From positions 3,744,001 through 3,808,000 of the forward strand of contig OZ250150.1 in assembly GCA_965237675.1 (NCBI GenBank): 64,000 nt of DNA, read 5' to 3'. Below are positions 24,851 to 36,626 of this stretch, in pieces; the first letter of the stretch is position 1; every line of letters starts with the position of its first letter. Source of the DNA: Candidatus Latescibacterota bacterium (GTDB taxonomy: Bacteria > Latescibacterota > UBA2968 > GCA-2709665). The notes beneath the pieces were generated by a model that was not told the origin of the DNA, ran no database searches, and worked only from the letters and a program-made list of their open reading frames with translations. The position numbers and the translations under genes were made by a program.

Positions 24851-25540
24851 ATGCCTACACTCTTTTTGTTGCCGCTCGCAGCCGTGTTGTTTTTCCTGCA
24901 ACCGGTCCGAGTGTGGGCAAGAGGAACGTGCGGCGAAGGGCGGGAACCGGGGTTGGATTTGCGTTTGAGGCCGTGGATCGGTTTGGCGGGTATCCGGCTA
25001 TTCTACGCCAATGGCACATGGCGCGTGGGGGCGCTTGCGGGGTGGTGGACGGTGTGGACAACGCCGCTGGGAAAAGATAAGAGTCGGCGCAAGAAAAGCG
25101 GCACAAAGGAACGGGCCGAAGGGAAACCGCATGTTCTGGACCGGCTCTCGGCAATGGGCGATCGTTTGGCGCGGATTGGGGTTTATTTCAAGAGGCTGTG
25201 GTTGCCCGCACGGCGATTTGCGTCGCGGGTTCTGAAGGGGTTCCGTTTGCGCCGCTTTTCCTGTAAGGTCGTATTTGGCGCAGCCAATCCGGCCACCACC
25301 GGACAGGTTTTTGGGTACTTCATGGCGGCTTCGTCTTTAGCCGGGATAAGCGGATGCATTGAAGCGACCCCGGATTTTGAGCAGCGGCGGCTGGATGGCG
25401 AAGCCGAGGTGGAAATCCGGGTGTATCCCCACCGGCTGTTATGCGCGGTTGCCTGCGTTGCGTGGTGCGCAGCGCTGGCCTGGTTTTTGGAGCGACGTGA
25501 TCTGAAGCGGAGACAGGGGGCGTCAGGCGTGCCGGCGTAA
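24851..25540 (+). CDS. DUF2953 (YtfI-like) membrane-anchored protein
   Basis: N-terminal TM helix; VVFGAANPATTGQVFG and IEATPDF motifs; lies upstream of a ytfJ homologue. Confidence 0.7.
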   Translation: MPTLFLLPLAAVLFFLQPVRVWARGTCGEGREPGLDLRLRPWIGLAGIRLFYANGTWRVGALAGWWTVWTTPLGKDKSRRKKSGTKERAEGKPHVLDRLSAMGDRLARIGVYFKRLWLPARRFASRVLKGFRLRRFSCKVVFGAANPATTGQVFGYFMAASSLAGISGCIEATPDFEQRRLDGEAEVEIRVYPHRLLCAVACVAWCAALAWFLERRDLKRRQGASGVPA

Positions 25541-25982: not shown

Positions 25983-27212
25983 ATGAACCGGCTGCTGCTT
26001 CTGATTCCGACAACGACCTATCGCACTCACGCTTTCATGGCCGCCGCCGCGTTGCTCGATGCAGCGGTGGTGGTGGGAACCGACCGCCGTCAGGCGCTGG
26101 AAAGTCAGATACCTGGAAGTACGCTGGCGCTGGACTTTGCAAGGCCCGCAGCCGCCGTGGAGGAGATTGTCGCTTTTTCGAAGGCGTACCCAATCCGGTC
26201 GGTGGTGGGCGTGGATGATAAGACCGTCCTGATCGCCGCGATGGCATGCAGGGCACTCGGACTTCCGCACAATTCGGTTGCGTCCGTCCGTGCGTCCCGG
26301 TACAAACACGTAATGCGCCAGATGCTTGCTGAAACAGGCCTGCCCTCTCCGGGGTTCAGGCTTTTTTCAATTTCGGAAGATCCGGAGGTGGCCGCCACAG
26401 AGGCGAAATATCCCTGTGTGTTGAAACCCGTGTATCTGTCCGCCAGCCGCGGCGTCATCCGCGCGAACGAAAGCGGGGAATTCGTGACGGCTTTCAACCG
26501 GATTCTGCGGTTGATTTCGGAGTCTGCCCACGATGCGCCTGAAGGCGGAGATTGCATTCTGGTGGAGGACTACATACCAGGCGAGGAGGTGGCGTTGGAG
26601 GGATTGCTGGTGGAGGGAGAGTTACGGACCCTCGCCTTGTTCGACAAACCGGATCCGCTCCGCGGGCCGTATTTTGCCGAGACACTGTACGTAACGCCCT
26701 CCCGGCTGCCCGAATCCACGCAGACACAGATCCGTGAGACCGCGCAGAGGGCCGCGCGTGCCCTTGGGCTGGGCGTGGGGCCCGTGCATGCCGAGTTGCG
26801 GCTGAATAGACGCGGCGTCTACGTCGTGGAAATCGCAGCGCGGTCCATCGGCGGGCTGTGTTCGCGTGTTTTACGTTTTGGCGCCGGCGCGTCGCTGGAA
26901 GAGCTGATTCTACGCCAGGCAACGGGGAACGCTCCGGGCGACTTGACGAGGGAAAATACCGCGGCCGGCGTGATGATGCTGCCGGTGCCGAAGCCGGGAA
27001 TTCTGCGGTCGGTGCAGGGGTTGGAACGTGCACGGTGCGTACGTGGAATTGTTGAGGTCGTGATGACCATTCCCCTGGATCAGCCTGTACAACCGCTGCC
27101 CGAGGGCGACCGGTATCTGGGCTTCATCTTCGCACGCGAAGAGACACCCGTGGCGGTGGAAGCGGCCCTTCGCGAGGCCTACCGCCGTCTCGGGGTGGTC
27201 ATCGAGGGATGA
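25983..27212 (+). CDS. ATP-grasp domain ligase (L-amino-acid-ligase-like)
   Basis: YPCVLKP, SASRGVIR, LVEDYIPGEE, GPVHAELR, VVEIAARSIGG; GGAGGAG RBS. Confidence 0.88.
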   Translation: MNRLLLLIPTTTYRTHAFMAAAALLDAAVVVGTDRRQALESQIPGSTLALDFARPAAAVEEIVAFSKAYPIRSVVGVDDKTVLIAAMACRALGLPHNSVASVRASRYKHVMRQMLAETGLPSPGFRLFSISEDPEVAATEAKYPCVLKPVYLSASRGVIRANESGEFVTAFNRILRLISESAHDAPEGGDCILVEDYIPGEEVALEGLLVEGELRTLALFDKPDPLRGPYFAETLYVTPSRLPESTQTQIRETAQRAARALGLGVGPVHAELRLNRRGVYVVEIAARSIGGLCSRVLRFGAGASLEELILRQATGNAPGDLTRENTAAGVMMLPVPKPGILRSVQGLERARCVRGIVEVVMTIPLDQPVQPLPEGDRYLGFIFAREETPVAVEAALREAYRRLGVVIEG

Positions 27213-27289
27213 TAGGGTGGCATTCAATCCGACGGGAGCCTGATCGGATTGCCCTGCGTCATTCCTTTAGCGACGTGCTTCCCGTTCTT

Positions 27290-27323
27290 CCAATCAGACA
27301 AGAGCAAACTGCTCTTCGGTTGG
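27290..27323 (-). promoter_or_regulatory. Candidate bacterial SECIS element
   Basis: mRNA UGA-GCGGAG-CCAA-CCG-AAGAGC-AGUUU-GCUCUU-GUCUGA-UUGG. It has a 6-bp upper stem, a 5-nt loop with G at position 2, a lower CCAA/UUGG stem, and 19 nt between the UGA and the loop. Confidence 0.7.
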
Positions 27324-28703
27324 CTCCGCTCAGCAGTACCAGGGCTCGGTGAGGCGGGGAAGGGATTGGCGGTTCGAGTCAATACCGGAATCGAACTCCG
27401 GGGCCGGGCGGCCCAACAGGTGGTGGAGGTACGACCGGATTCTATGGAAAATTTCTCGCCGGCTGGTGTCCTGATTCTGAAGCCGTGTGACCAACCGGGT
27501 GAGTTCGTGTTGGAGCCGATCCAACCGTACATCCGGATGTGCCCACGGATATGACAGGGTTTCGGGTGCGAAGGGTTCCACCAGGTCCCGAATCTGGGCA
27601 AGGTCCAGGAGTCTTGAGCCTTTGGGGATGAGCAGCCGTATCGTGAGCTGTACGGGAGAGACGTTCTCGATCAGGTCAAGGCCCGCGAGGGTGTCCAGAA
27701 AGCCGGCATAGTGCTCCATGGTGGCCCAGGGCGTGAACGGGATGAAGGTCGGATTCATTACGAGTTCGTGTCGTCGAAAGAGATGCACGACTTCGATGAA
27801 GTCGTCGACTGTATGGCCCTTGTCCAACCGCGCGAGGACCCGGTCGTCGAGGGACTCGACGGCGGTCGTGACAATCGCGCACCCGGTATCTTTGAGGAGG
27901 GGCAGATAACGGCTATACCCTAGCAGATGTTCGATTTTGACGGTGATGTCGTAGGTGACATCGGGAAATGTTTCGTGGAGCCTTTTTAAAATCGGTATGG
28001 CGTGGCCGATACCGTTGAAGAAGTCGGGATCACCAAACGTGATGTGACCGGCCCCCGCGGCGACCTGTTTCGCAATGTCGTCCAGCACGGTCTCCGGTTG
28101 CACAATACGGAATCTGCCCCTGTACACGGGCACCACGGGACAATGGCGACAGAGATGTTTGCAACCTCGGCTGGCCTCCGTATAGCCGACGGTTGTGAGA
28201 TGTCCGTCCTCTGTGGATAGTCGCGCGTATCGGGAAAGGTCCGGCAGGCCTGTCCGGTCGGGCGGAAGAAACCGCAGCCTGGCCAGGGAAACGACGGGCT
28301 CTTCCTGATCCGGGGTGGCGCTCGAGGCCTCTTGCAGACGCCTGCAGAGTTGAAGCAGTCCGTTTTCGAATTCTCCGCCGAGAATGGTCTGGGCGCCCAC
28401 GCTTCGCAGGAAGGATTCGTTCACGGATGCATAGAGCCCATAGAAACAGAGGTGGGCGTTGGCATTCTGTTCGCGGGCTCTTAAGGCAAGCGGTACGGCA
28501 AGTCGCGTTGCCGTGTGCATTGGCACGTAGAATGCTACCAGATCGGCGTCCCGAACGGCCTCGTCAGGAAAATCGTCTATTGAAACGTCAGCCAGGACAA
28601 CGTGGATGCCCGCCCTCCGCAACCATCCTGCCGGCGAGGCCAGACCGAATGGCTGACGACCCAATTCGTAGGTGGACACGAGCACGACTTTGAATGGACG
28701 CAA
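27294..28703 (-). CDS. CUAEP-tail radical SAM selenoprotein (B12-binding-like N-domain plus radical SAM), Sec at TGA 27330-27332
   Basis: CxxxCxxC motif SRGCKHLCRHCP. Reading through the TGA gives ...LTEPWYC-U-AEPTEEQFALV-stop(27294), the CUAEP/CCAEP tail. A hairpin lies directly 3' of the UGA. Confidence 0.88.
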
Positions 28704-28736: not shown

Positions 28737-28785
28737 AAAAAAACGGCAGACACGGGGGCGGCCCTCACGAAGTCTGCCGTTTTTT
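28737..28785 (-). terminator. Rho-independent terminator after nfuA (potentially bidirectional)
   Basis: AAAAAACGGCAGAC...GTCTGCCGTTTTTT perfect inverted repeat with A/T tracts on both sides. Confidence 0.8.
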
Positions 28786-28796
28786 GTAAGCTGTTG

Positions 28797-29381
28797 TTAT
28801 TTTGAGGACTGGTAGTACGGGTTCGTACCACCCGCGTGTTCGGTCACGTCGAGGATCTCTTCAATTTCGGGCACGGCCTCCTTGATGAGGACTTCGACAC
28901 CCTGTTTGAGCGTGACATCCACCATGCCGCAACCCTGGCATCCTCCGCCGAACTGGATGTACGCTTTATTGTCCTTTACGTCGATCAACGAGATATGACC
29001 ACCGTGCATGGCAACGCCGGGGTTGATCTTCTCGTCGATGATGTTCTGGATCTTCTCTGCAGTGGTGCCTTTCAGATGCGAGGGAACCTTGTTGGGATTC
29101 TCTATCTTGAAACCTCTTCCCATCAGGCTGTCCACAAAGTCCAGGATGATGTCCTGGGCATACGGGGCGCTTTCCTGGCCGACGTAGACATTGAACCCGT
29201 CGAACGGGGTGACGTCGTCGTCTTCGTTTTCCTGCCCGTCGGCGACAAAGCCGAGTCGGTAGTTGGCCTGCAGAGGCGATACCGCCTCTGCTTTGACACG
29301 AACGCCAACGATGGCCGACTCCTGGTTCCGGATAAGGTTGACGACCTCCTTCTGCGCGGCTTCGGTTACGGTGATGTTCAT
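28797..29381 (-). CDS. nfuA: Fe-S biogenesis carrier NfuA
   Basis: Degenerate A-type N-domain (ITVTEAAQ...GFKIENPN) plus an Nfu domain INPGVAMHGG...GGGCQGCGMVDVTLKQGVE...DVTEHAGGTNPYY. Confidence 0.93.
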   Translation of the reverse strand: MNITVTEAAQKEVVNLIRNQESAIVGVRVKAEAVSPLQANYRLGFVADGQENEDDDVTPFDGFNVYVGQESAPYAQDIILDFVDSLMGRGFKIENPNKVPSHLKGTTAEKIQNIIDEKINPGVAMHGGHISLIDVKDNKAYIQFGGGCQGCGMVDVTLKQGVEVLIKEAVPEIEEILDVTEHAGGTNPYYQSSK

Positions 29382-29421
29382 ATCGACCTTCCCCTTAGAG
29401 AGGTGTGCTTTGCCAGGGCGG

Positions 29422-29916
29422 TCAAGACTGAAGCGCCACTGTCGGTCTTGCAGGATGTTCGCGGTCTATTTTCTCCTGAATTTTCATCAGCGCGAACAAC
29501 AGGTCTTCAGGCCGGGGCGGGCAGCCCGGCACGTAGATATCCACCGGCAAGAACTGATCGACGCCCTGAACAAGCGTATACGTATTGAAAACGCCTCCGG
29601 ACGATGCGCAGGCGCCCATCGAAATCACCCACTTCGGATCCGGCATCTGATCGTAGATCTTCTTGAGAACCGGCATCATCTTGATCGATATCCGACCTGA
29701 TACAATGAGCAAGTCGGACTGCCGTGGCGAGAACCGCACAGCTTCCGCGCCGAAGCGAGCCATGTCGAAGCGTCCGGAGAGCGTGGCCATCATTTCGATG
29801 GCGCAGCAAGCCGTGCCGAATGGCATTGGCCAGAGGGATGATTTCCGCGCCCAGTTAATCATTTTGGACAGAGTGGTTGTGAAAACGTTATCGCCAAGGC
29901 CCGTCTCAAGTCCCAT
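29422..29916 (-). CDS. nuoB: Orphan NADH-quinone oxidoreductase subunit B homologue (second copy) among the suf genes
   Basis: [46 protein letters not shown]; all four N2-cluster Cys ligands are present. Confidence 0.92.
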
Positions 29917-30019: not shown

Positions 30020-30499
30020 CTAACCCGAAACCTGAATCAGCTCGTCCGTCACGTTCTGCAAACAGGCATCCATGGCCTGTTCTTCTCCCAGCAGATCATT
30101 CAGTGTAACGCGGCTCAGCAGCTGATCGATCATGGACTGTACCGAGGTCCACAGCGATCGTATCGAACAGTCTACGGAGTGCGTACATAGTAATTCCCGG
30201 CCAGCGTGTTCCTCGCAGAATTCCGGTGTGAACAGTCGACCGCCGAGTGCGGTCAGTACGTCGCCGACCACAATCAGGTCAGCAGATTGCGCGAGTCTGT
30301 ACCCTCCGGCCTGTCCTCGAACGCTTTCGACGAATTCCCCCAGCCGCAGAAGACGCATCAGCTTGGCGACATTTGGGATGGAGAGGCCTTCAACCTGGCT
30401 GATCTCAGATATGGAGAGGCCGCCGCCGGTTTCTCTCTGCCTGCGGCCAATCTGAAGCAGGCACCGAAGCCCGTATTCTTCCCCGGCGCTCAATTTCAT
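30020..30499 (-). CDS. Rrf2 family Fe-S-sensing transcriptional regulator
   Basis: EEYGLRCLL, winged HTH VESVRGQAGGYRLA, and a Cys/His cluster FCEEH...LCTHSVDCSIRSLW. Confidence 0.92.
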   Translation of the reverse strand: MKLSAGEEYGLRCLLQIGRRQRETGGGLSISEISQVEGLSIPNVAKLMRLLRLGEFVESVRGQAGGYRLAQSADLIVVGDVLTALGGRLFTPEFCEEHAGRELLCTHSVDCSIRSLWTSVQSMIDQLLSRVTLNDLLGEEQAMDACLQNVTDELIQVSG

Positions 30500-30640
30500 G
30501 GCGCTATAGCTTTCTTGGATGGGTTGGACGTCTGATTGAATCCATCTGTTCGGCTAAACGGCTCCATGGATCCGGAAAGTCCGCGTCGTCGGCCTCGGCA
30601 CCCGCGACGGTGGGGGGTGTGGCGCGGTTACGGGTTCCGA

Positions 30641-31150
30641 CTAAAACAGTCCGAGCTCGAGTCTTGCTGCTTCGGACATCATCTCCGGGTTCCACGGCGG
30701 ATCGAAGGTCAGATCCAGGTTGACGTCTCGGACACCGGAAACCGAGCGGGTGACGCTTTCAACCTGCCCGGGCAGGATACCCGCGGCCGGACATGCGGGG
30801 GAGGTCAAAGTCATTTTAACGTAGGTCATCCCGGAGGGTTCGACCTTGACTTCGTATATGAGGCCGATATCGTAGATGTTGATCGGAATCTCCGGATCGA
30901 AAACCGTGCGATGGGCGGCGATGATGTTATCTCTGACGCCTTCGGTGTTTATCGAGTTTTCGGTTTCGGCCGCGGCTGCGGCCGCTTCGGCCATCTCTTG
31001 CTTTTCTTCCTTGCTTGCGGCGGCGTGCGCCGTCAGCGCGCTGATGTCGACGGGATTCGCCTCGTCTGCCGCGTTTGTATTCGACTCGTCGCTTGGAGGC
31101 GAATCGTCTTCTTTGTTCCTGTACAGTCGGTTCAGCAGTCGGTTCAGCAC
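30641..31150 (-). CDS. sufT: SUF system Fe-S assembly protein SufT (DUF59/MIP18)
   Basis: VFDPEIPINIYDIGLIY, MTLTSPACP, FDPPWNPEMMSEAARLELG. Confidence 0.92.
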   Translation of the reverse strand: MLNRLLNRLYRNKEDDSPPSDESNTNAADEANPVDISALTAHAAASKEEKQEMAEAAAAAAETENSINTEGVRDNIIAAHRTVFDPEIPINIYDIGLIYEVKVEPSGMTYVKMTLTSPACPAAGILPGQVESVTRSVSGVRDVNLDLTFDPPWNPEMMSEAARLELGLF

Positions 31151-31173
31151 GATGGATTCCTCCCGTTAGACGC

Positions 31174-31629
31174 CTACTCGGTGGTCACAGGCAATTCGCG
31201 TTTCTCAAGTGCTGCCACAAGGGTGTGCCACGCCAGGGTTGCGCATTTGATGCGCACAGGGAACTCTCTTACGCCCGAAAAAACGGCCAGTTTGCCGATA
31301 CCGTCGGTGACGGGTTGGGTCGAAACATCGCTGGTGACCAGGTCGCGGAACTTTCCGAAGAGCGATTGTGCTTCCTGAAGGGTCCGTCCCTTGACCGCGT
31401 CGGTCATCAGAGATGCCGACGCCTTGGAGATGGCACATCCGGCGCCTTGAAAAGCGATATCTGCAATGCGGTTGCCGTCGATTTTCACGAAGAGGTTGAA
31501 ATGGTCGCCACACAACGGGTTGTACCCCTCGGACGTTCGATCCGCGCCGGTCATCGACCGGAAGTTGCGCGGACTCCGATTGTGGTCCAGAATGACCTGT
31601 TGGTAGAGTTCTCGGAGATCGGACATCAT
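31174..31629 (-). CDS. sufU: SUF system NifU-like sulfur-transfer protein SufU
   Basis: LYQQVILDH, GYNPLCGD, GAGCAISKASAS, FPVRIKCATL. Confidence 0.95.
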   Translation of the reverse strand: MMSDLRELYQQVILDHNRSPRNFRSMTGADRTSEGYNPLCGDHFNLFVKIDGNRIADIAFQGAGCAISKASASLMTDAVKGRTLQEAQSLFGKFRDLVTSDVSTQPVTDGIGKLAVFSGVREFPVRIKCATLAWHTLVAALEKRELPVTTE

Positions 31630-32906
31630 CGGAAGACCTCATGGGTCGTGTGCAACGCCCGTACGAGCGTGTCGATGTCTTCCCGCGTATTGTAAAACGC
31701 TGTGGCCGCTCGGGTCGTCGCGGGAATATTGAAGTGCCGCATCACAGGTTGGGCGCAATGGTGTCCGGCGCGGACTGCCACGCCTTGCTGATCAACGATG
31801 GTGCCGACGTCATGCGGGTGGACACCGTCCAGAACGAAGGAGATGACACTGACTTTCTCTTCAGCCGTTCCTATGATTCTCAGCCCTGATATCTCGGAAA
31901 GGGCGTCGGTGGCATAGGCCAGCAGGTCGTTCTCGTAAGCGGCGGCCGCTTCCAGGTCGATCCGGTTCAAATAGTCGATGGCGGCGCCGAGCCCGATACA
32001 GCCGGCAATATGGGGTGTGCCGGCCTCGAAGCGGGCGGGTGGATCGGCATAGGTGGTTTTTTCAAGCGAAACTTCACGAATCATGCCGCCTCCGCCCTTG
32101 TAGGGCGGCATCGATTCAAGCAGTTCACTTCTCCCGTAAAGAACCCCGATGCCGGTCGGACCGTATAGCTTGTGCCCCGAAAAGGCGTAGAAGTCACATC
32201 CGAGTGCCTGAACGTCCACTTTGAAATGGGGAACCGCCTGTGCTCCATCCAGGAGTACGGGGATACTGCGTTCATGTGCCAGTTCCACGATTGCGGCTAC
32301 CGGATTGAGGGTGCCAAGGACGTTCGACACGTGTACGACGGCCACAAGTTTCGTACGCTCGTTCAGCCGTCTTTCAACCTCGTCGATCTGCAACTCGCCC
32401 CGGTCATTAATGGGTATCACACGCAGTTTTGCACCTTTTTCCTCGCAGAGCATCTGCCACGGCACGATGTTCGAGTGGTGTTCCATGGCGGAAACGAGGA
32501 TTTCGTCACCGGCTTCCACGTTTTTGCGGCCGAATGTCTGGGCAACGAGGTTAATGCTGTCCGTGGTGCCGCTGGTGAAGATGATTTCTCTGTCGTGGGC
32601 CGCGTTCAGAAACTGACGGACCTTGCTGCGTGCCCCTTCGTAGGAATCCGTTGCAAGCTGGCTGAGAAGATGAACCCCGCGGTGCACGTTGGCGTTGGCC
32701 GTTTCGTAAAAAACCTCAAGCACGTCCAGCACATCTCTGGGTTTCTGGGTTGTTGCCGCGTTGTCAAGGTAGACCAGCGGGTTGTCCCGTATGGATTGGC
32801 TCAGTACCGGAAAATCCATCCGGATACGGTAGGGATCGAAAGGACCCGCGCGTTCAATGAGCGGGCAGGAAAGCCGTTCGGCCAGGGCATGCGCTGTCAG
32901 GCTCAT
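31626..32906 (-). CDS. sufS: Cysteine desulfurase SufS
   Basis: YLDNAATTQKP, EHHSNIVPW, PLP lysine in SGHKLYGPTG, catalytic RAGHHCAQP; ATGA overlap with the sufD stop. Confidence 0.96.
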   Translation of the reverse strand: MSLTAHALAERLSCPLIERAGPFDPYRIRMDFPVLSQSIRDNPLVYLDNAATTQKPRDVLDVLEVFYETANANVHRGVHLLSQLATDSYEGARSKVRQFLNAAHDREIIFTSGTTDSINLVAQTFGRKNVEAGDEILVSAMEHHSNIVPWQMLCEEKGAKLRVIPINDRGELQIDEVERRLNERTKLVAVVHVSNVLGTLNPVAAIVELAHERSIPVLLDGAQAVPHFKVDVQALGCDFYAFSGHKLYGPTGIGVLYGRSELLESMPPYKGGGGMIREVSLEKTTYADPPARFEAGTPHIAGCIGLGAAIDYLNRIDLEAAAAYENDLLAYATDALSEISGLRIIGTAEEKVSVISFVLDGVHPHDVGTIVDQQGVAVRAGHHCAQPVMRHFNIPATTRAATAFYNTREDIDTLVRALHTTHEVFR

Positions 32907-34228
32907 GGGATTTTCCCGACGTTTCGCGCCTGTTCGAATCTGTCCATTACAATCCGTTCGAGATAGTCCCGGACGGAATCGGGTTTGATTCTGTTCAGGA
33001 TGTCGACCGCGAATGCATGGACAAGGATGCGCTGTGCGGCCGCGTGACTTAACCCGCGAGAGCGCAGGTAAAAGACCGCGTTCTGATCGAGTTGCCCTAT
33101 TGTTGCGCCGTGGGAGCACTTCACCTGGTCGGCGTAGATTTCGAGTTGGGGTTTGGTATTGATGCCGGCGCCGTCGGAGATGAGCAGGCTCTGGCTGCTC
33201 TGGTAGGCGTCGGTCTCCTGAGCCTTCCGGTGGACGTGTATCTTGCCGCGAAACACGCCACTGGATCTGCCGCCGAGAATACCCTTGTAGAGTTCGTGGC
33301 TGTTGCAATTCGGCTCGGCGTGTTCGATCAGGGTGTGGTTATCGATATGCTGCTCTTTGTCGGTCAAATAGAAGCCGTTGACCGTGGCTTCACCGGCTTC
33401 GCCGGCCAGCAACGCGTTGACTTCGTTGCGGACCAGTTTGCCGCCCAGAGAAATGGCGTGTGTGGACAGATTGCTCCCGGCGCCCTGACGGGCTTGCATG
33501 GTGGCGATATGAAACGCGTCCGGGCTCTCGAGTTCCAGTTTGTAGTGATCCACCACCGCGCGGTCGCCGGCGATGACTTCGGTGACCGCGTTTGTGAAAT
33601 AGGCGCCGCCACCCGTGTAGGTTTCGATAATCGTGGCCTGGCTGTCTTCTTCGGCCAGGACAAGCGTGCGGGGGTGTGAAATGGACGGGTCGCCTGAAGG
33701 GATTGAAACAAACAGGATGTGAATGGGAGATTCGACAGCCGTGCCCCGTGGGACATATACACAGGCACCATCCTGGAGAAATGCGGTGTTGAGCGCGACG
33801 AAGGCGTGCTCCTCGTACGCGGCGTGCCGCGCAATATGGGTTTCCACCCATTCGGGTTCGAAGGCCATCAATTCGGACAGACTGCACACCCGCACGCCGG
33901 GCGGGAGGTTCCCCGTGCGGGAATATTCGGCATTGTAGAATCCATTGACGAAAACCAGGCGTGTGGCAGCCAGTTCCTGGATGGGATCTTCCGTTTTCCA
34001 GACCTGACGTACATCCTCTGCTGTCGTTGTGCGAAACGGAGTCCGGACAAGCGGAGCAACATTTGTGTGGAACCACGCTTCGTCCCTTGTGCCGGGAAAC
34101 CCGAGTTCCGCAAATCGTTCAATTGCAGACTTGCGAAGTGCGTGCAAGGGCGCGGCGAACCGTCCGTTCAGGCTCTCTTCAAAAGCGGTAAATGCCGACA
34201 GATAGGCGTGTGTGCCTCTGTTCCCCAT
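32903..34228 (-). CDS. sufD: Fe-S cluster assembly protein SufD
   Basis: FVALNTAF, ELYKGIL, TKPQLEIYADQVKCSHGATIGQLD, FYLRSRG; AAGGAGG RBS. Confidence 0.95.
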   Translation of the reverse strand: MGNRGTHAYLSAFTAFEESLNGRFAAPLHALRKSAIERFAELGFPGTRDEAWFHTNVAPLVRTPFRTTTAEDVRQVWKTEDPIQELAATRLVFVNGFYNAEYSRTGNLPPGVRVCSLSELMAFEPEWVETHIARHAAYEEHAFVALNTAFLQDGACVYVPRGTAVESPIHILFVSIPSGDPSISHPRTLVLAEEDSQATIIETYTGGGAYFTNAVTEVIAGDRAVVDHYKLELESPDAFHIATMQARQGAGSNLSTHAISLGGKLVRNEVNALLAGEAGEATVNGFYLTDKEQHIDNHTLIEHAEPNCNSHELYKGILGGRSSGVFRGKIHVHRKAQETDAYQSSQSLLISDGAGINTKPQLEIYADQVKCSHGATIGQLDQNAVFYLRSRGLSHAAAQRILVHAFAVDILNRIKPDSVRDYLERIVMDRFEQARNVGKIP

Positions 34229-34244
34229 GGTGCGGCGACCTCCT

Positions 34245-35018
34245 TTAAGGACGGGCGAATCGGGCCGTCGACTCTTCACGAATCCAATCGTAGCCTTCCG
34301 CTTCGAGCTTCTGGGCGAGTTCCTTGCCACCCGATTTGACAATCCGGCCCTTCAGAAGAACATGCACGGCGTCCGGCACGATGTAGTCCAGCAGCCGCTG
34401 GTAGTGGGTAACCACGAGAACCGCGCTCCCGGGGTTTTTCCGGTGAAGCGTGTTCACGCCGTTGGCCACGATCTTCAGGGCGTCGATATCCAAACCGGAG
34501 TCCGTTTCGTCCATGATAGCCAGCCGGGGTTCGAGCATTGCCATCTGGAATATTTCGTTTCGTTTTTTTTCACCGCCGGAGAAGCCTTCGTTGACCGCCC
34601 GATTGAGAAACGACTGGTCCATTTCCACCAGTTCCAGCTTCTCCCTGGACAGAGCGAGAAAATCCATGGCGTCGAGTTCATCCTGGCCGCGTGCTTTTCG
34701 AAGTTCATTGAGCGCAGTCCGAAGAAAATAGGCGCTGTTGACGCCGGGAATTTCCACCGGGTACTGAAAAGCCATGAAGACGCCGGCCTGGGCGCGTTCT
34801 TCCGGTTCCAATTCCAACAGGTCTTCGCCTTCGTAGAGAATCTCGCCGCGGGTCACTTCGTATTCTTCTCGGCCGGCCAATACCTGGGCAAGGGTGCTCT
34901 TTCCGGATCCGTTGGGACCCATAATGGCGTGGATTTCGCCGGCGTTGATTTTCAGGTCGATGCCGGTAAGGATGCGGGTGCCTTCGACGCTTGCGTGGAG
35001 GTCGTTGACTTCGAGCAT
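34245..35018 (-). CDS. sufC: Fe-S cluster assembly ATPase SufC
   Basis: [51 protein letters not shown]. Confidence 0.97.
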
Positions 35019-35159
35019 GCGTGTTCCTTATTTATAGACTGTCCTTTGTTGCAGTCGTGAGGCGCTGTCTGGCCGGGCGTTTTTTTAAAGGCCTCCGGCG
35101 ACGCCTTCGATGTGTTCGCAGATTCTTTCTGTGTCGCCTGGGCGCGTTCCCCGTGCGTG

Positions 35160-36626
35160 TTATCCCACGCTGCCTTCCAGGCTGATGCCAAGCAACTTCT
35201 GGGCCTCGACGGCGAATTCCATCGGGAGTTCGGCCAGCACTTCCCTGCAGAAGCCGTTGACGATCATGGAGACGGCGTCTTCGGTGGAGATGCCGCGCTG
35301 GTTACAGTAGAAAATTTGATCTTCACCGATTTTTGAGGTGGAGGCTTCGTGCTCTACCTGGGAGGTGGTGTTTCTCACGTCGATGTACGGGAAGGTGTGA
35401 GCCCCGCAACGGTCGCCGATGAGCATGGAGTCGCACTGGGTAAAGTTTCGGGCGTTCGCTGCGCCTTTTAGTACCTGCACCCGGCCCCGATAGGTATTCT
35501 GACCGTTCTTGGCGGAGATGCCTTTCGAAATGATGGTGCTGCGCGTGTTTTTACCCAGATGAATCATCTTCGTGCCCGTATCGGCCTGTTGGCGCCCGGT
35601 GGTGACGGCCACGGAGTAGAATTCGCCAACGGAGTTGTCGCCCTGGAGAATGCAGCTGGGATATTTCCAGGTGATGGCCGATCCGGTTTCAACCTGCGTC
35701 CAGGAGATTTTCGCGTTGGCGCCGCGGCAGGCGCCGCGTTTGGTGACAAAGTTGTAGATCCCGCCAACACCGTTTTCGTCTCCCGGATACCAGTTCTGAA
35801 CGGTCGAGTATTTGATCTGCGCGTTGTCGAGGGCAACCAGTTCCACGACGGCGGCATGGAGCTGATTCTCGTCTCTCTTGGGGGCCGTGCAACCTTCGAG
35901 ATACGATACGTAAGCCCCGTCTTCAGCGACGATCAGCGTCCTCTCGAACTGGCCTGTATTGGCTGCGTTGATTCGGAAGTACGTGGACAGTTCCATGGGG
36001 CACCGCACACCGCGGGGGATGTAGCAGAAGGACCCGTCCGTAAAGACCGCGGAGTTGAGAGCGGCGAAGAAATTGTCATTGTAGGGCACGACCGAACCGA
36101 GGTATTTCTTCACTATTTCGGTGTGTTCTTGCACGGCTTCCGAGAACGAGCAGAAAATGATGCCCAAGTCAGACAGTTTGTCTTTAAACGTCGTGGCCAC
36201 GGAAACGCTGTCGAAAACGGCGTCGACCGCCACGCCGGCAAGTATTTTCTGCTCTTGGAGAGGGATGCCCAATTTCTCATACGTGCTCAGGATTTCAGGG
36301 TCAACCTCGTCGAGGCTCTGGAGCGCGTCCTGGTTTTTGGGTGCGGAGTAATATATAATGTTCTGATAGTCGATGTCCGGATAGTCGACCATGGCCCACT
36401 GGCGGCTTTGCTTGCGACGGGTCGGATCATCCATCTTCAGCCAGTTGCGATAGGCTTTAAGGCGCCATTGCAATAGCCAGTCGGGTTCGCTTTTCTTCTC
36501 GGAAATAAACGCGATAATGTCTTCATTCAGGCCAGGGGGCGCGGCGTCCGTTTCGATGTCCGTTACGAAACCGTATTTGTACTCTCTGGTCGCCAGTTCT
36601 TCAATTTCCTGCACTTCCTCGCTCAT
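35160..36626 (-). CDS. sufB: Fe-S cluster assembly protein SufB
   Basis: [56 protein letters not shown]...EGSVG. Confidence 0.97.

Follow-up and report, generated by a model that had tools for sequence, protein, structure and literature searches.

The 64,000-nucleotide (nt) stretch of DNA analysed here, referred to as the window (positions 3,744,001 to 3,808,000 of contig OZ250150.1, from a Candidatus Latescibacterota bacterium), carries on its minus strand, at 27294..28703, a gene for a radical S-adenosylmethionine (SAM) enzyme. Judged from sequence comparisons, this is very probably a genuine selenoprotein gene of the curated family NF040546, with an in-frame UGA decoded as selenocysteine (Sec) by way of a hairpin shortly beyond it and a product of 469 amino acids. 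The open reading frame (ORF) as called (28703..27330, minus strand, 457 amino acids, TTG start) ends ...LTEPWYC-TGA. An initial annotation of this DNA had held that the frame continues past this point as C-U-AEPTEEQFALV, and this is what the sequence contains: the UGA at 27330..27332 (minus strand), which is codon 458 (U458), lies directly after the codon for the invariant C457 and is followed by GCG GAG CCA ACC GAA GAG CAG TTT GCT CTT GTC TGA, the tail AEPTEEQFALV being encoded in frame at 27297..27329 and the final TGA stop, included in the gene, at 27296-27294. The start codon is either TTG 28703 or CTG 28721, and the choice is uncertain; the CTG aligns with the annotated methionine of close homologues, whose N-terminus is MPTISPLRPFK.

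The read-through protein scores 612.7 bits against NF040546 (rSAM_CUAEP, an equivalog entitled "CUAEP/CCAEP-tail radical SAM (seleno)protein", with a cut-off of 500), which bears out at the equivalog level the family membership given in the initial annotation. Protein residues 6-467 align with model positions 1-467 of 468, and the tail is covered; C457-U458-A-E-P fits the pattern C-[U/C]-A-E-P, with CCAEP homologues having cysteine in the U458 column. The cluster motif CX3CX2C (C181/C185/C188) is invariant in all 41 aligned family members, as are C86, C275 and C457, and the Pfam family PF04055 (Radical_SAM) is matched at 50.9 bits. The protein resembles the NF040546 family in all of the features tested (full-length score, CX3CX2C motif, CUAEP tail, and position of Sec in the same column), and no difference was found. 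The source genome has a single NF040546 copy, containing one TGA, and the same is true throughout its taxonomic family, where each of 22 genomes (its own counted) has one copy above the cut-off with exactly one TGA; no above-cut-off copy is present in any of the 19 genomes of the sister taxonomic family. Elsewhere, family members occur in records labelled Acidobacteriota, Gemmatimonadota/Latescibacterota, Chloroflexota, Methylomirabilota, Actinomycetota and others.

The selenoprotein observation restates a curated family. In addition to the NCBIfam entry, a preprint lists the CUAEP family as uncharacterised and as one of few selenoproteins with a CU motif (Haft 2022 bioRxiv, 10.1101/2022.07.06.499078), and the NCBI pipeline already names the protein; the literature searched contained no other biological paper using 'CUAEP' or 'CCAEP'. 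With the family, the Sec codon and the truncation by gene callers already on record, the value for annotation is small, and the interest lies in the chemistry.

Decoding of the UGA codon

Eighty loci were fetched from species-representative genomes, of which 79 carry the tail motif (one, L076, lies outside the search pattern). The codon at the Sec site is TGA in 60 of these, TGC in 14 and TGT in five; AEP or SEP follows it in every one of the 79, and the frame then stays open for 11-32 codons. The best 120 database homologues comprise 103 that stop precisely at ...EPW[YF]C, 16 that read on as CCAEP and one that does so as CCSEP. The initial annotation had suggested looking in homologues for a cysteine aligned with the UGA and for AEP kept downstream of it, and had expected standard gene callers to cut the protein short; all three are observed. 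When 61 TGA forms are aligned without gaps, the columns from the UGA to the stem of the hairpin are invariant or nearly so, with the exception of columns 6, 9, 12 and 15. These are all third codon positions, and variation confined to them is what one would expect if the segment is translated.

The source genome (5.6 megabases in three contigs, 99.93% complete) encodes the full machinery for selenocysteine, and the check for selA, selB, selC and selD proposed in the initial annotation finds all four. The selA (561 bits), selB (358 bits) and selD (363 bits, with one TGA) matches are above the curated cut-offs, as is tRNA-Sec at 73.3 bits, with the anticodon TCA assigned by ARAGORN. The selA and selB genes are side by side, with the tRNA-Sec gene next, in a compact minus-strand cluster (contig C1, 4984023-4987542); selD is located elsewhere (contig C1, 309559-310482). 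The selD gene itself encodes a selenoprotein (...ARTCG-U-AAKVSP), and has a hairpin comparable to that of the radical SAM gene, whose loop, GGUC, begins 17 nt past the selD UGA.

Bacterial selenocysteine insertion sequence (SECIS) elements are hairpins placed just downstream of the UGA, with an apical loop that contains G and U. A SECIS-like hairpin is present at 27300..27316 (minus strand) as the initial annotation described it, with a stem AAGAGC/GCUCUU (arms at 27316-27311 and 27305-27300) and a loop AGUUU (27310-27306) that lies 19 nt past the UGA and has G as its second base. The lower stem CCAA/UUGG that had been added to it was rejected: it is unused in the minimum-energy fold, and its flanks differ among close relatives, with no conservation in 19 relatives of the same taxonomic family.

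The hairpin is a consistent feature of the TGA forms. When nt 13-39 downstream of the UGA are folded with RNAfold, 60 of 60 TGA forms give a hairpin whose loop lies at nt 23-27 and reads AGUU, AGUUG/A/C, AGGUN, GUU or GGU, whereas the 19 Cys forms are mostly without one; the median energies are -10.25 and -4.5 kcal/mol respectively (Mann-Whitney p 8e-10, for relatives that are not independent). The stem changes with the encoded peptide (EEQ[FLV]A[LP], [GR]DQL[AV]P, TGQLAG and others) and its pairing is retained. Pairing extends to 74.4% of cells in the i+j=50 register, where 44 cells are altered on both sides; none of 500 shuffles attains either value, and six slid registers all pair less. The best of the six (63.4% of cells paired) is a second register that is also in use, with a loop of 4 nt instead of 5 nt. 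Two of five covariation measures are not above shuffles (double-change pairs, 416/500; further pair types, 496/500); since two registers are in use in the stem, the covariation comes out too low when only one consensus structure is assumed. In 20 loci from the same taxonomic family (the window's own counted), the synonymous sites within the stem (codons GAG, GCT and CTT) are frozen and those outside it vary.

Two results count against the hairpin as a SECIS element. Folded alone, that of the window is suggestive only (-7.8 kcal/mol, z score -2.27, matched by 8 of 200 shuffles), and an Rfam scan of 27200-27420 that admitted expectation values (E) up to 10 returned nothing of SECIS type, only a chance snoRNA (E 5). 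Its weight as a SECIS element comes from the comparison among homologues, not from the fold of a single sequence.

These data also bear on the alternative that the UGA is a true stop, with a protein ending at PWYC and a hairpin that is there by chance or has a part in transcription or in the stability of the mRNA. Such a stop would agree with the end point of most database entries (the 103 of 120 noted above) and with the weak significance of the hairpin by itself, but it is opposed by the [AS]EP frame kept in 79 of 79 loci, by the Cys codon that replaces TGA in 19, by the restriction of changes past the UGA to third codon positions, by a hairpin that tracks TGA as against Cys forms, by the complete Sec machinery, and by a curated family model that runs through the tail. 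We give it very little credence, and the UGA at 27332-27330 is, by this comparative evidence, very likely a Sec codon, to which the hairpin would direct SelB and tRNA-Sec.

A family member on the megaplasmid of Thermomicrobium roseum DSM 5159, a type strain in culture (locus L133, 6947-8440), is annotated as ending ...ESWFC, with TGA as the stop. Its sequence continues in frame as AEPLEDPSGP... and has a hairpin GGACCC-GUC-GGGUCC at the same distance; the recorded coding sequence is probably truncated.

Relationship to ArsL and candidate chemistry

After NF040546, the family closest to the window protein is ArsL (model NF040542), the RCCLKC-tail enzyme of arsinothricin biosynthesis that forms a C-As bond, which scores 279.8 bits over residues 7-399; the next named family scores 48 bits. 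None of 151 genomes of the phylum has an ArsL match above the cut-off, and the sequence used for comparison was taken from plasmid records instead. This protein, from a Priestia plasmid and with an RCCLKC tail, has 34% identity to the window protein over 410 amino acids, with the body aligned from residue 4 to about residue 401.

Two preprints describe the chemistry of ArsL. According to one, ArsL cleaves SAM to methylthioadenosine and a 3-amino-3-carboxypropyl (ACP) radical, and its C-terminal RCCLKC binds As(III) (Dong-group preprint); according to the other, three tail cysteines bind arsenic, and an organometallic species with an Fe-C(gamma) bond forms, which arsenic may attack (Booker/Silakov preprint). 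ArsL and the CUAEP protein are alike in having homologous bodies, a canonical motif for the cluster, and a C-terminal tail that is short and rich in cysteine and that in ArsL binds the substrate atom. A homologous body together with a short soft-ligand tail, positioned where the substrate atom is bound in ArsL, suggests that the same logic may apply.

We therefore put forward, tentatively and as a possibility that falls short of being probable, that the enzyme carries out an ArsL-like transfer of the ACP group to a soft atom held on the Cys-Sec tail, the product then being ligated by an ATP-grasp partner. In this scheme SAM would be cleaved at its S-C(gamma) bond, as in ArsL, and the mobile Cys-Sec tail would present a soft atom (sulfur, selenium or a metalloid) to the SAM-derived aminocarboxypropyl species, yielding a gamma-substituted 2-aminobutyrate. 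A partner of the L-amino-acid-ligase type would join this product to a second amino acid, and neighbouring proteins of the NfuA and YggX types would service the iron-sulfur cluster. A narrower version, which we consider unlikely, is that the enzyme forms carbon-chalcogen or carbon-metalloid bonds: an atom of sulfur, selenium or tellurium, bound to the tail in a mixed adduct of the selenosulfide type, would accept the ACP group through organometallic or radical chemistry like that of ArsL, to give a (seleno)homocysteine-like amino acid that the partner ligase would incorporate into a dipeptide.

The candidate partner is encoded at 25983..27212 on the plus strand, convergent with the radical SAM gene. 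It is an ATP-grasp enzyme of the L-amino-acid-ligase type with 409 amino acids and the Pfam domains ATP-grasp_4, LAL_C2 and ATPgrasp_N, and its gene ends 81 nt from the true stop of the radical SAM gene. Among 41 related genomes, the ligase is present in all 22 carriers of the radical SAM gene versus none of 19 non-carriers, and in 21 of the 22 carriers the two genes are adjoining and convergent. Over a broader range of 81 loci from many phyla, examined by tblastn (67 have at least 2 kilobases (kb) of downstream sequence), a homologue of the ligase is found in 51, mostly co-directional in the 39 where it lies within 500 nt.

An ATP-grasp gene of this type is also found within 4 kb of the radical SAM gene in both of the ArsL-family plasmid loci examined, which fits a shared scheme in which an amino acid is made and then ligated; it suggests that ArsL-type products may likewise be ligated into peptides at the plasmid loci. 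The ATP-grasp protein of the ArsL locus has 23% identity to the window ligase. The plasmid genes (Priestia megaterium, locus L134, 1483-2706; Bacillus cereus AH820, locus L135, 1450-2673) encode proteins with ATP-grasp_4 and a weak LAL_C2 match, 2-3 kb upstream of the radical SAM gene. They sit in an operon of carboxymuconolactone-decarboxylase, ATP-grasp and ArsR genes within an arsenic island.

Several observations weigh against the ArsL-like scheme. The score of 279.8 bits misses the NF040542 cut-off of 450 by far, and the aligned region reaches no further than model position 405 of 423, short of the tail; the arsenic-binding RCCLKC tail is absent from the window protein, which ends CUAEPTEEQFALV. 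The two soft ligands of the Cys-Sec pair, one of them selenium, differ from the three-cysteine arsenic site of ArsL. No arsenic gene such as arsM, arsQ or arsR is present among the window neighbours or among the 14 recurrent neighbour clusters that were annotated, whereas ars genes occur at both ArsL-family loci examined (L134, L135). The ligase is within 500 nt in just 39 of 81 loci, and other genes follow the radical SAM gene in some lineages. The CUAEP protein differs from ArsL, in addition, by a C-terminal region about 45 residues longer and by the extra invariant C86 and C275, which are isoleucine and valine in one Priestia ArsL-family protein.

An AlphaFold2 model (AF2; built with a 41-row alignment) has a mean predicted local distance difference test score (pLDDT) of 87.7 and a predicted template modelling score of 0.89, and shows a Rossmann-like N-terminal domain, a radical SAM barrel, a helical C-terminal region and a tail of moderate confidence (pLDDT 67-81). 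The body, as modelled, is a Rossmann-like module resembling a B12 domain at the N-terminus followed by the radical SAM barrel. The best matches in the Protein Data Bank (PDB) by Foldseek are AprD4 (6fd2), TsrM (6wte), OxsB (5ul4), MgmA (9ccb) and MiaB. AprD4, TsrM, OxsB and MgmA, radical SAM structures with B12 domains, share the two-domain fold (E 1e-15 to 1e-12, template modelling scores 0.52-0.63), although their identity to the window protein is just 13-19%. A sequence search of PDB chains gave no matches, and no structure of ArsL appeared among the Foldseek matches in the PDB. The B12-binding family PF02310 is matched weakly (21 bits, under the gathering score of 32.1), and the fold resembles that of cobalamin binders (TsrM, OxsB) and that of AprD4 alike.

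Selenocysteine residues usually serve redox functions. It is conceivable, though we are doubtful of it, that the enzyme carries out canonical 5'-deoxyadenosyl chemistry on a small molecule or peptide and that the Cys-Sec pair is a redox arm, serving as a donor of hydrogen atoms or electrons or as a resolving selenenylsulfide, by comparison with the C-terminus of mammalian thioredoxin reductase. The canonical CX3CX2C motif, the PF04055 match and best fold matches that are canonical or class-B-like (AprD4, OxsB, MgmA, MiaB) would all suit such an enzyme, as would neighbours with an oxidative-stress or iron-sulfur flavour (of 81 loci, 26 have AcnA, 39 YggX and 10 NfuA). However, ArsL is much the closest characterised family, at 279.8 bits against 48 for the next named family, and ArsL, which according to the preprints likewise possesses the canonical motif and fold, nevertheless carries out ACP chemistry. 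The initial annotation had suggested that the tail could bind a soft metal or act as a redox arm like the tail of ArsL; because ArsL is the nearest named family, this analogy is a reasonable one.

The invariant cysteines outside the cluster motif raise a different possibility, that the Cys-Sec pair with C86 and C275 might be the ligands of an auxiliary site, either a metal ion or an iron-sulfur cluster, that takes part in the reaction or is consumed by it. Such a site would explain a dedicated NfuA-type carrier encoded next door, and an NfuA-like gene is directly upstream here and at nine other loci; among the fold matches are MiaB and RimO, which carry auxiliary clusters. The invariance of C86, C275 and C457 in 41 of 41 family members points the same way, as do the isoleucine and valine that stand at C86 and C275 in the Priestia protein and the report that ArsL has only six conserved cysteines (Booker/Silakov preprint). 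Set against this, C86 is mid-strand and C275 at the start of a strand in the AF2 model, positions more typical of buried structural residues; the comparison is with a single ArsL-family sequence; and NfuA is adjacent in just 10 of 81 loci. An auxiliary site of this kind is, in our estimation, quite improbable. The two residues are encoded by codons near 28446 (C86) and 27879 (C275).

Vicinal pairs at the C-terminus are familiar from mammalian thioredoxin reductase (GCUG, Gly-Cys-Sec-Gly) and from MerA (CC). Other selenoproteins with a CU motif are HgcA, SAO-locus proteins as well as some MerT, as listed in a preprint (Haft 2022, 10.1101/2022.07.06.499078). All of these resemble the window protein in having a vicinal Cys-Sec or Cys-Cys pair on or near a flexible C-terminus, which in them holds a soft metal or shuttles reducing equivalents, whereas their folds and catalytic cores are unrelated to it; the logic of the motif alone is common to them.

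To our knowledge, ArsL is the only radical SAM enzyme of canonical fold that transfers the aminocarboxypropyl group of SAM. The CUAEP family is a sister of ArsL that is far more widespread, has selenocysteine where ArsL has arsenic-binding cysteines and is accompanied by a dipeptide-type ligase; knowledge of its substrate would tell whether chemistry of the ArsL type serves generally to make carbon-heteroatom bonds. If the narrower version given above were true, the enzyme would belong to a widespread and unrecognised small-molecule pathway of soil bacteria in which selenium is used catalytically. The literature searched contained no paper that joins 'radical SAM', 'selenocysteine' and 'ArsL'.

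Neighbouring genes

Directly upstream of the radical SAM gene is a gene for an NfuA-like iron-sulfur carrier (28797..29381, minus strand), which matches TIGR03341 at 155.9 bits, below the cut-off of 269, together with the Pfam families Fe-S_biosyn and NifU. Between the two genes is a terminator-like hairpin followed by a U7 tract (28737..28779, minus strand; -27 kcal/mol, z score -4.32, equalled by none of 200 shuffles). A simple scan for promoters and terminators listed no promoter, and it did not list this terminator because its loop is longer than 8 nt. Further upstream on the same strand are genes for an Rrf2 regulator (30020-30499), a SufS-family desulfurase (31626-33308) and SufB (35160-36626).

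Neighbour families in the 81 loci were named from one representative of each cluster, and 14 of the 24 most recurrent clusters were annotated. In addition to the ligase, YggX (Iron_traffic) and AcnA homologues counted above, of which AcnA is divergently oriented, a DUF169 homologue is found at 12 of 81 loci. The NfuA-like homologue is directly upstream, within 500 nt, in nine of its 10 loci.

Four ORFs encoding 228-282 amino acids, at 24851-25540 (plus strand), 30536-31378 (plus), 33390-34076 (minus) and 34212-35060 (plus), are without a match in Pfam or NCBIfam at E 1e-5. The SufS-family ORF has about 150 extra N-terminal residues, and its match to NF041166 (encapsulin-cargo desulfurase; 668 bits, below the cut-off of 800) covers residues 151-553 only; the extension may be real or may reflect an over-long ORF call. 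A 250-amino-acid ORF antisense to nfuA (28836-29588, plus strand) has no family match, and recurs in four loci only because it overlies the conserved nfuA frame.

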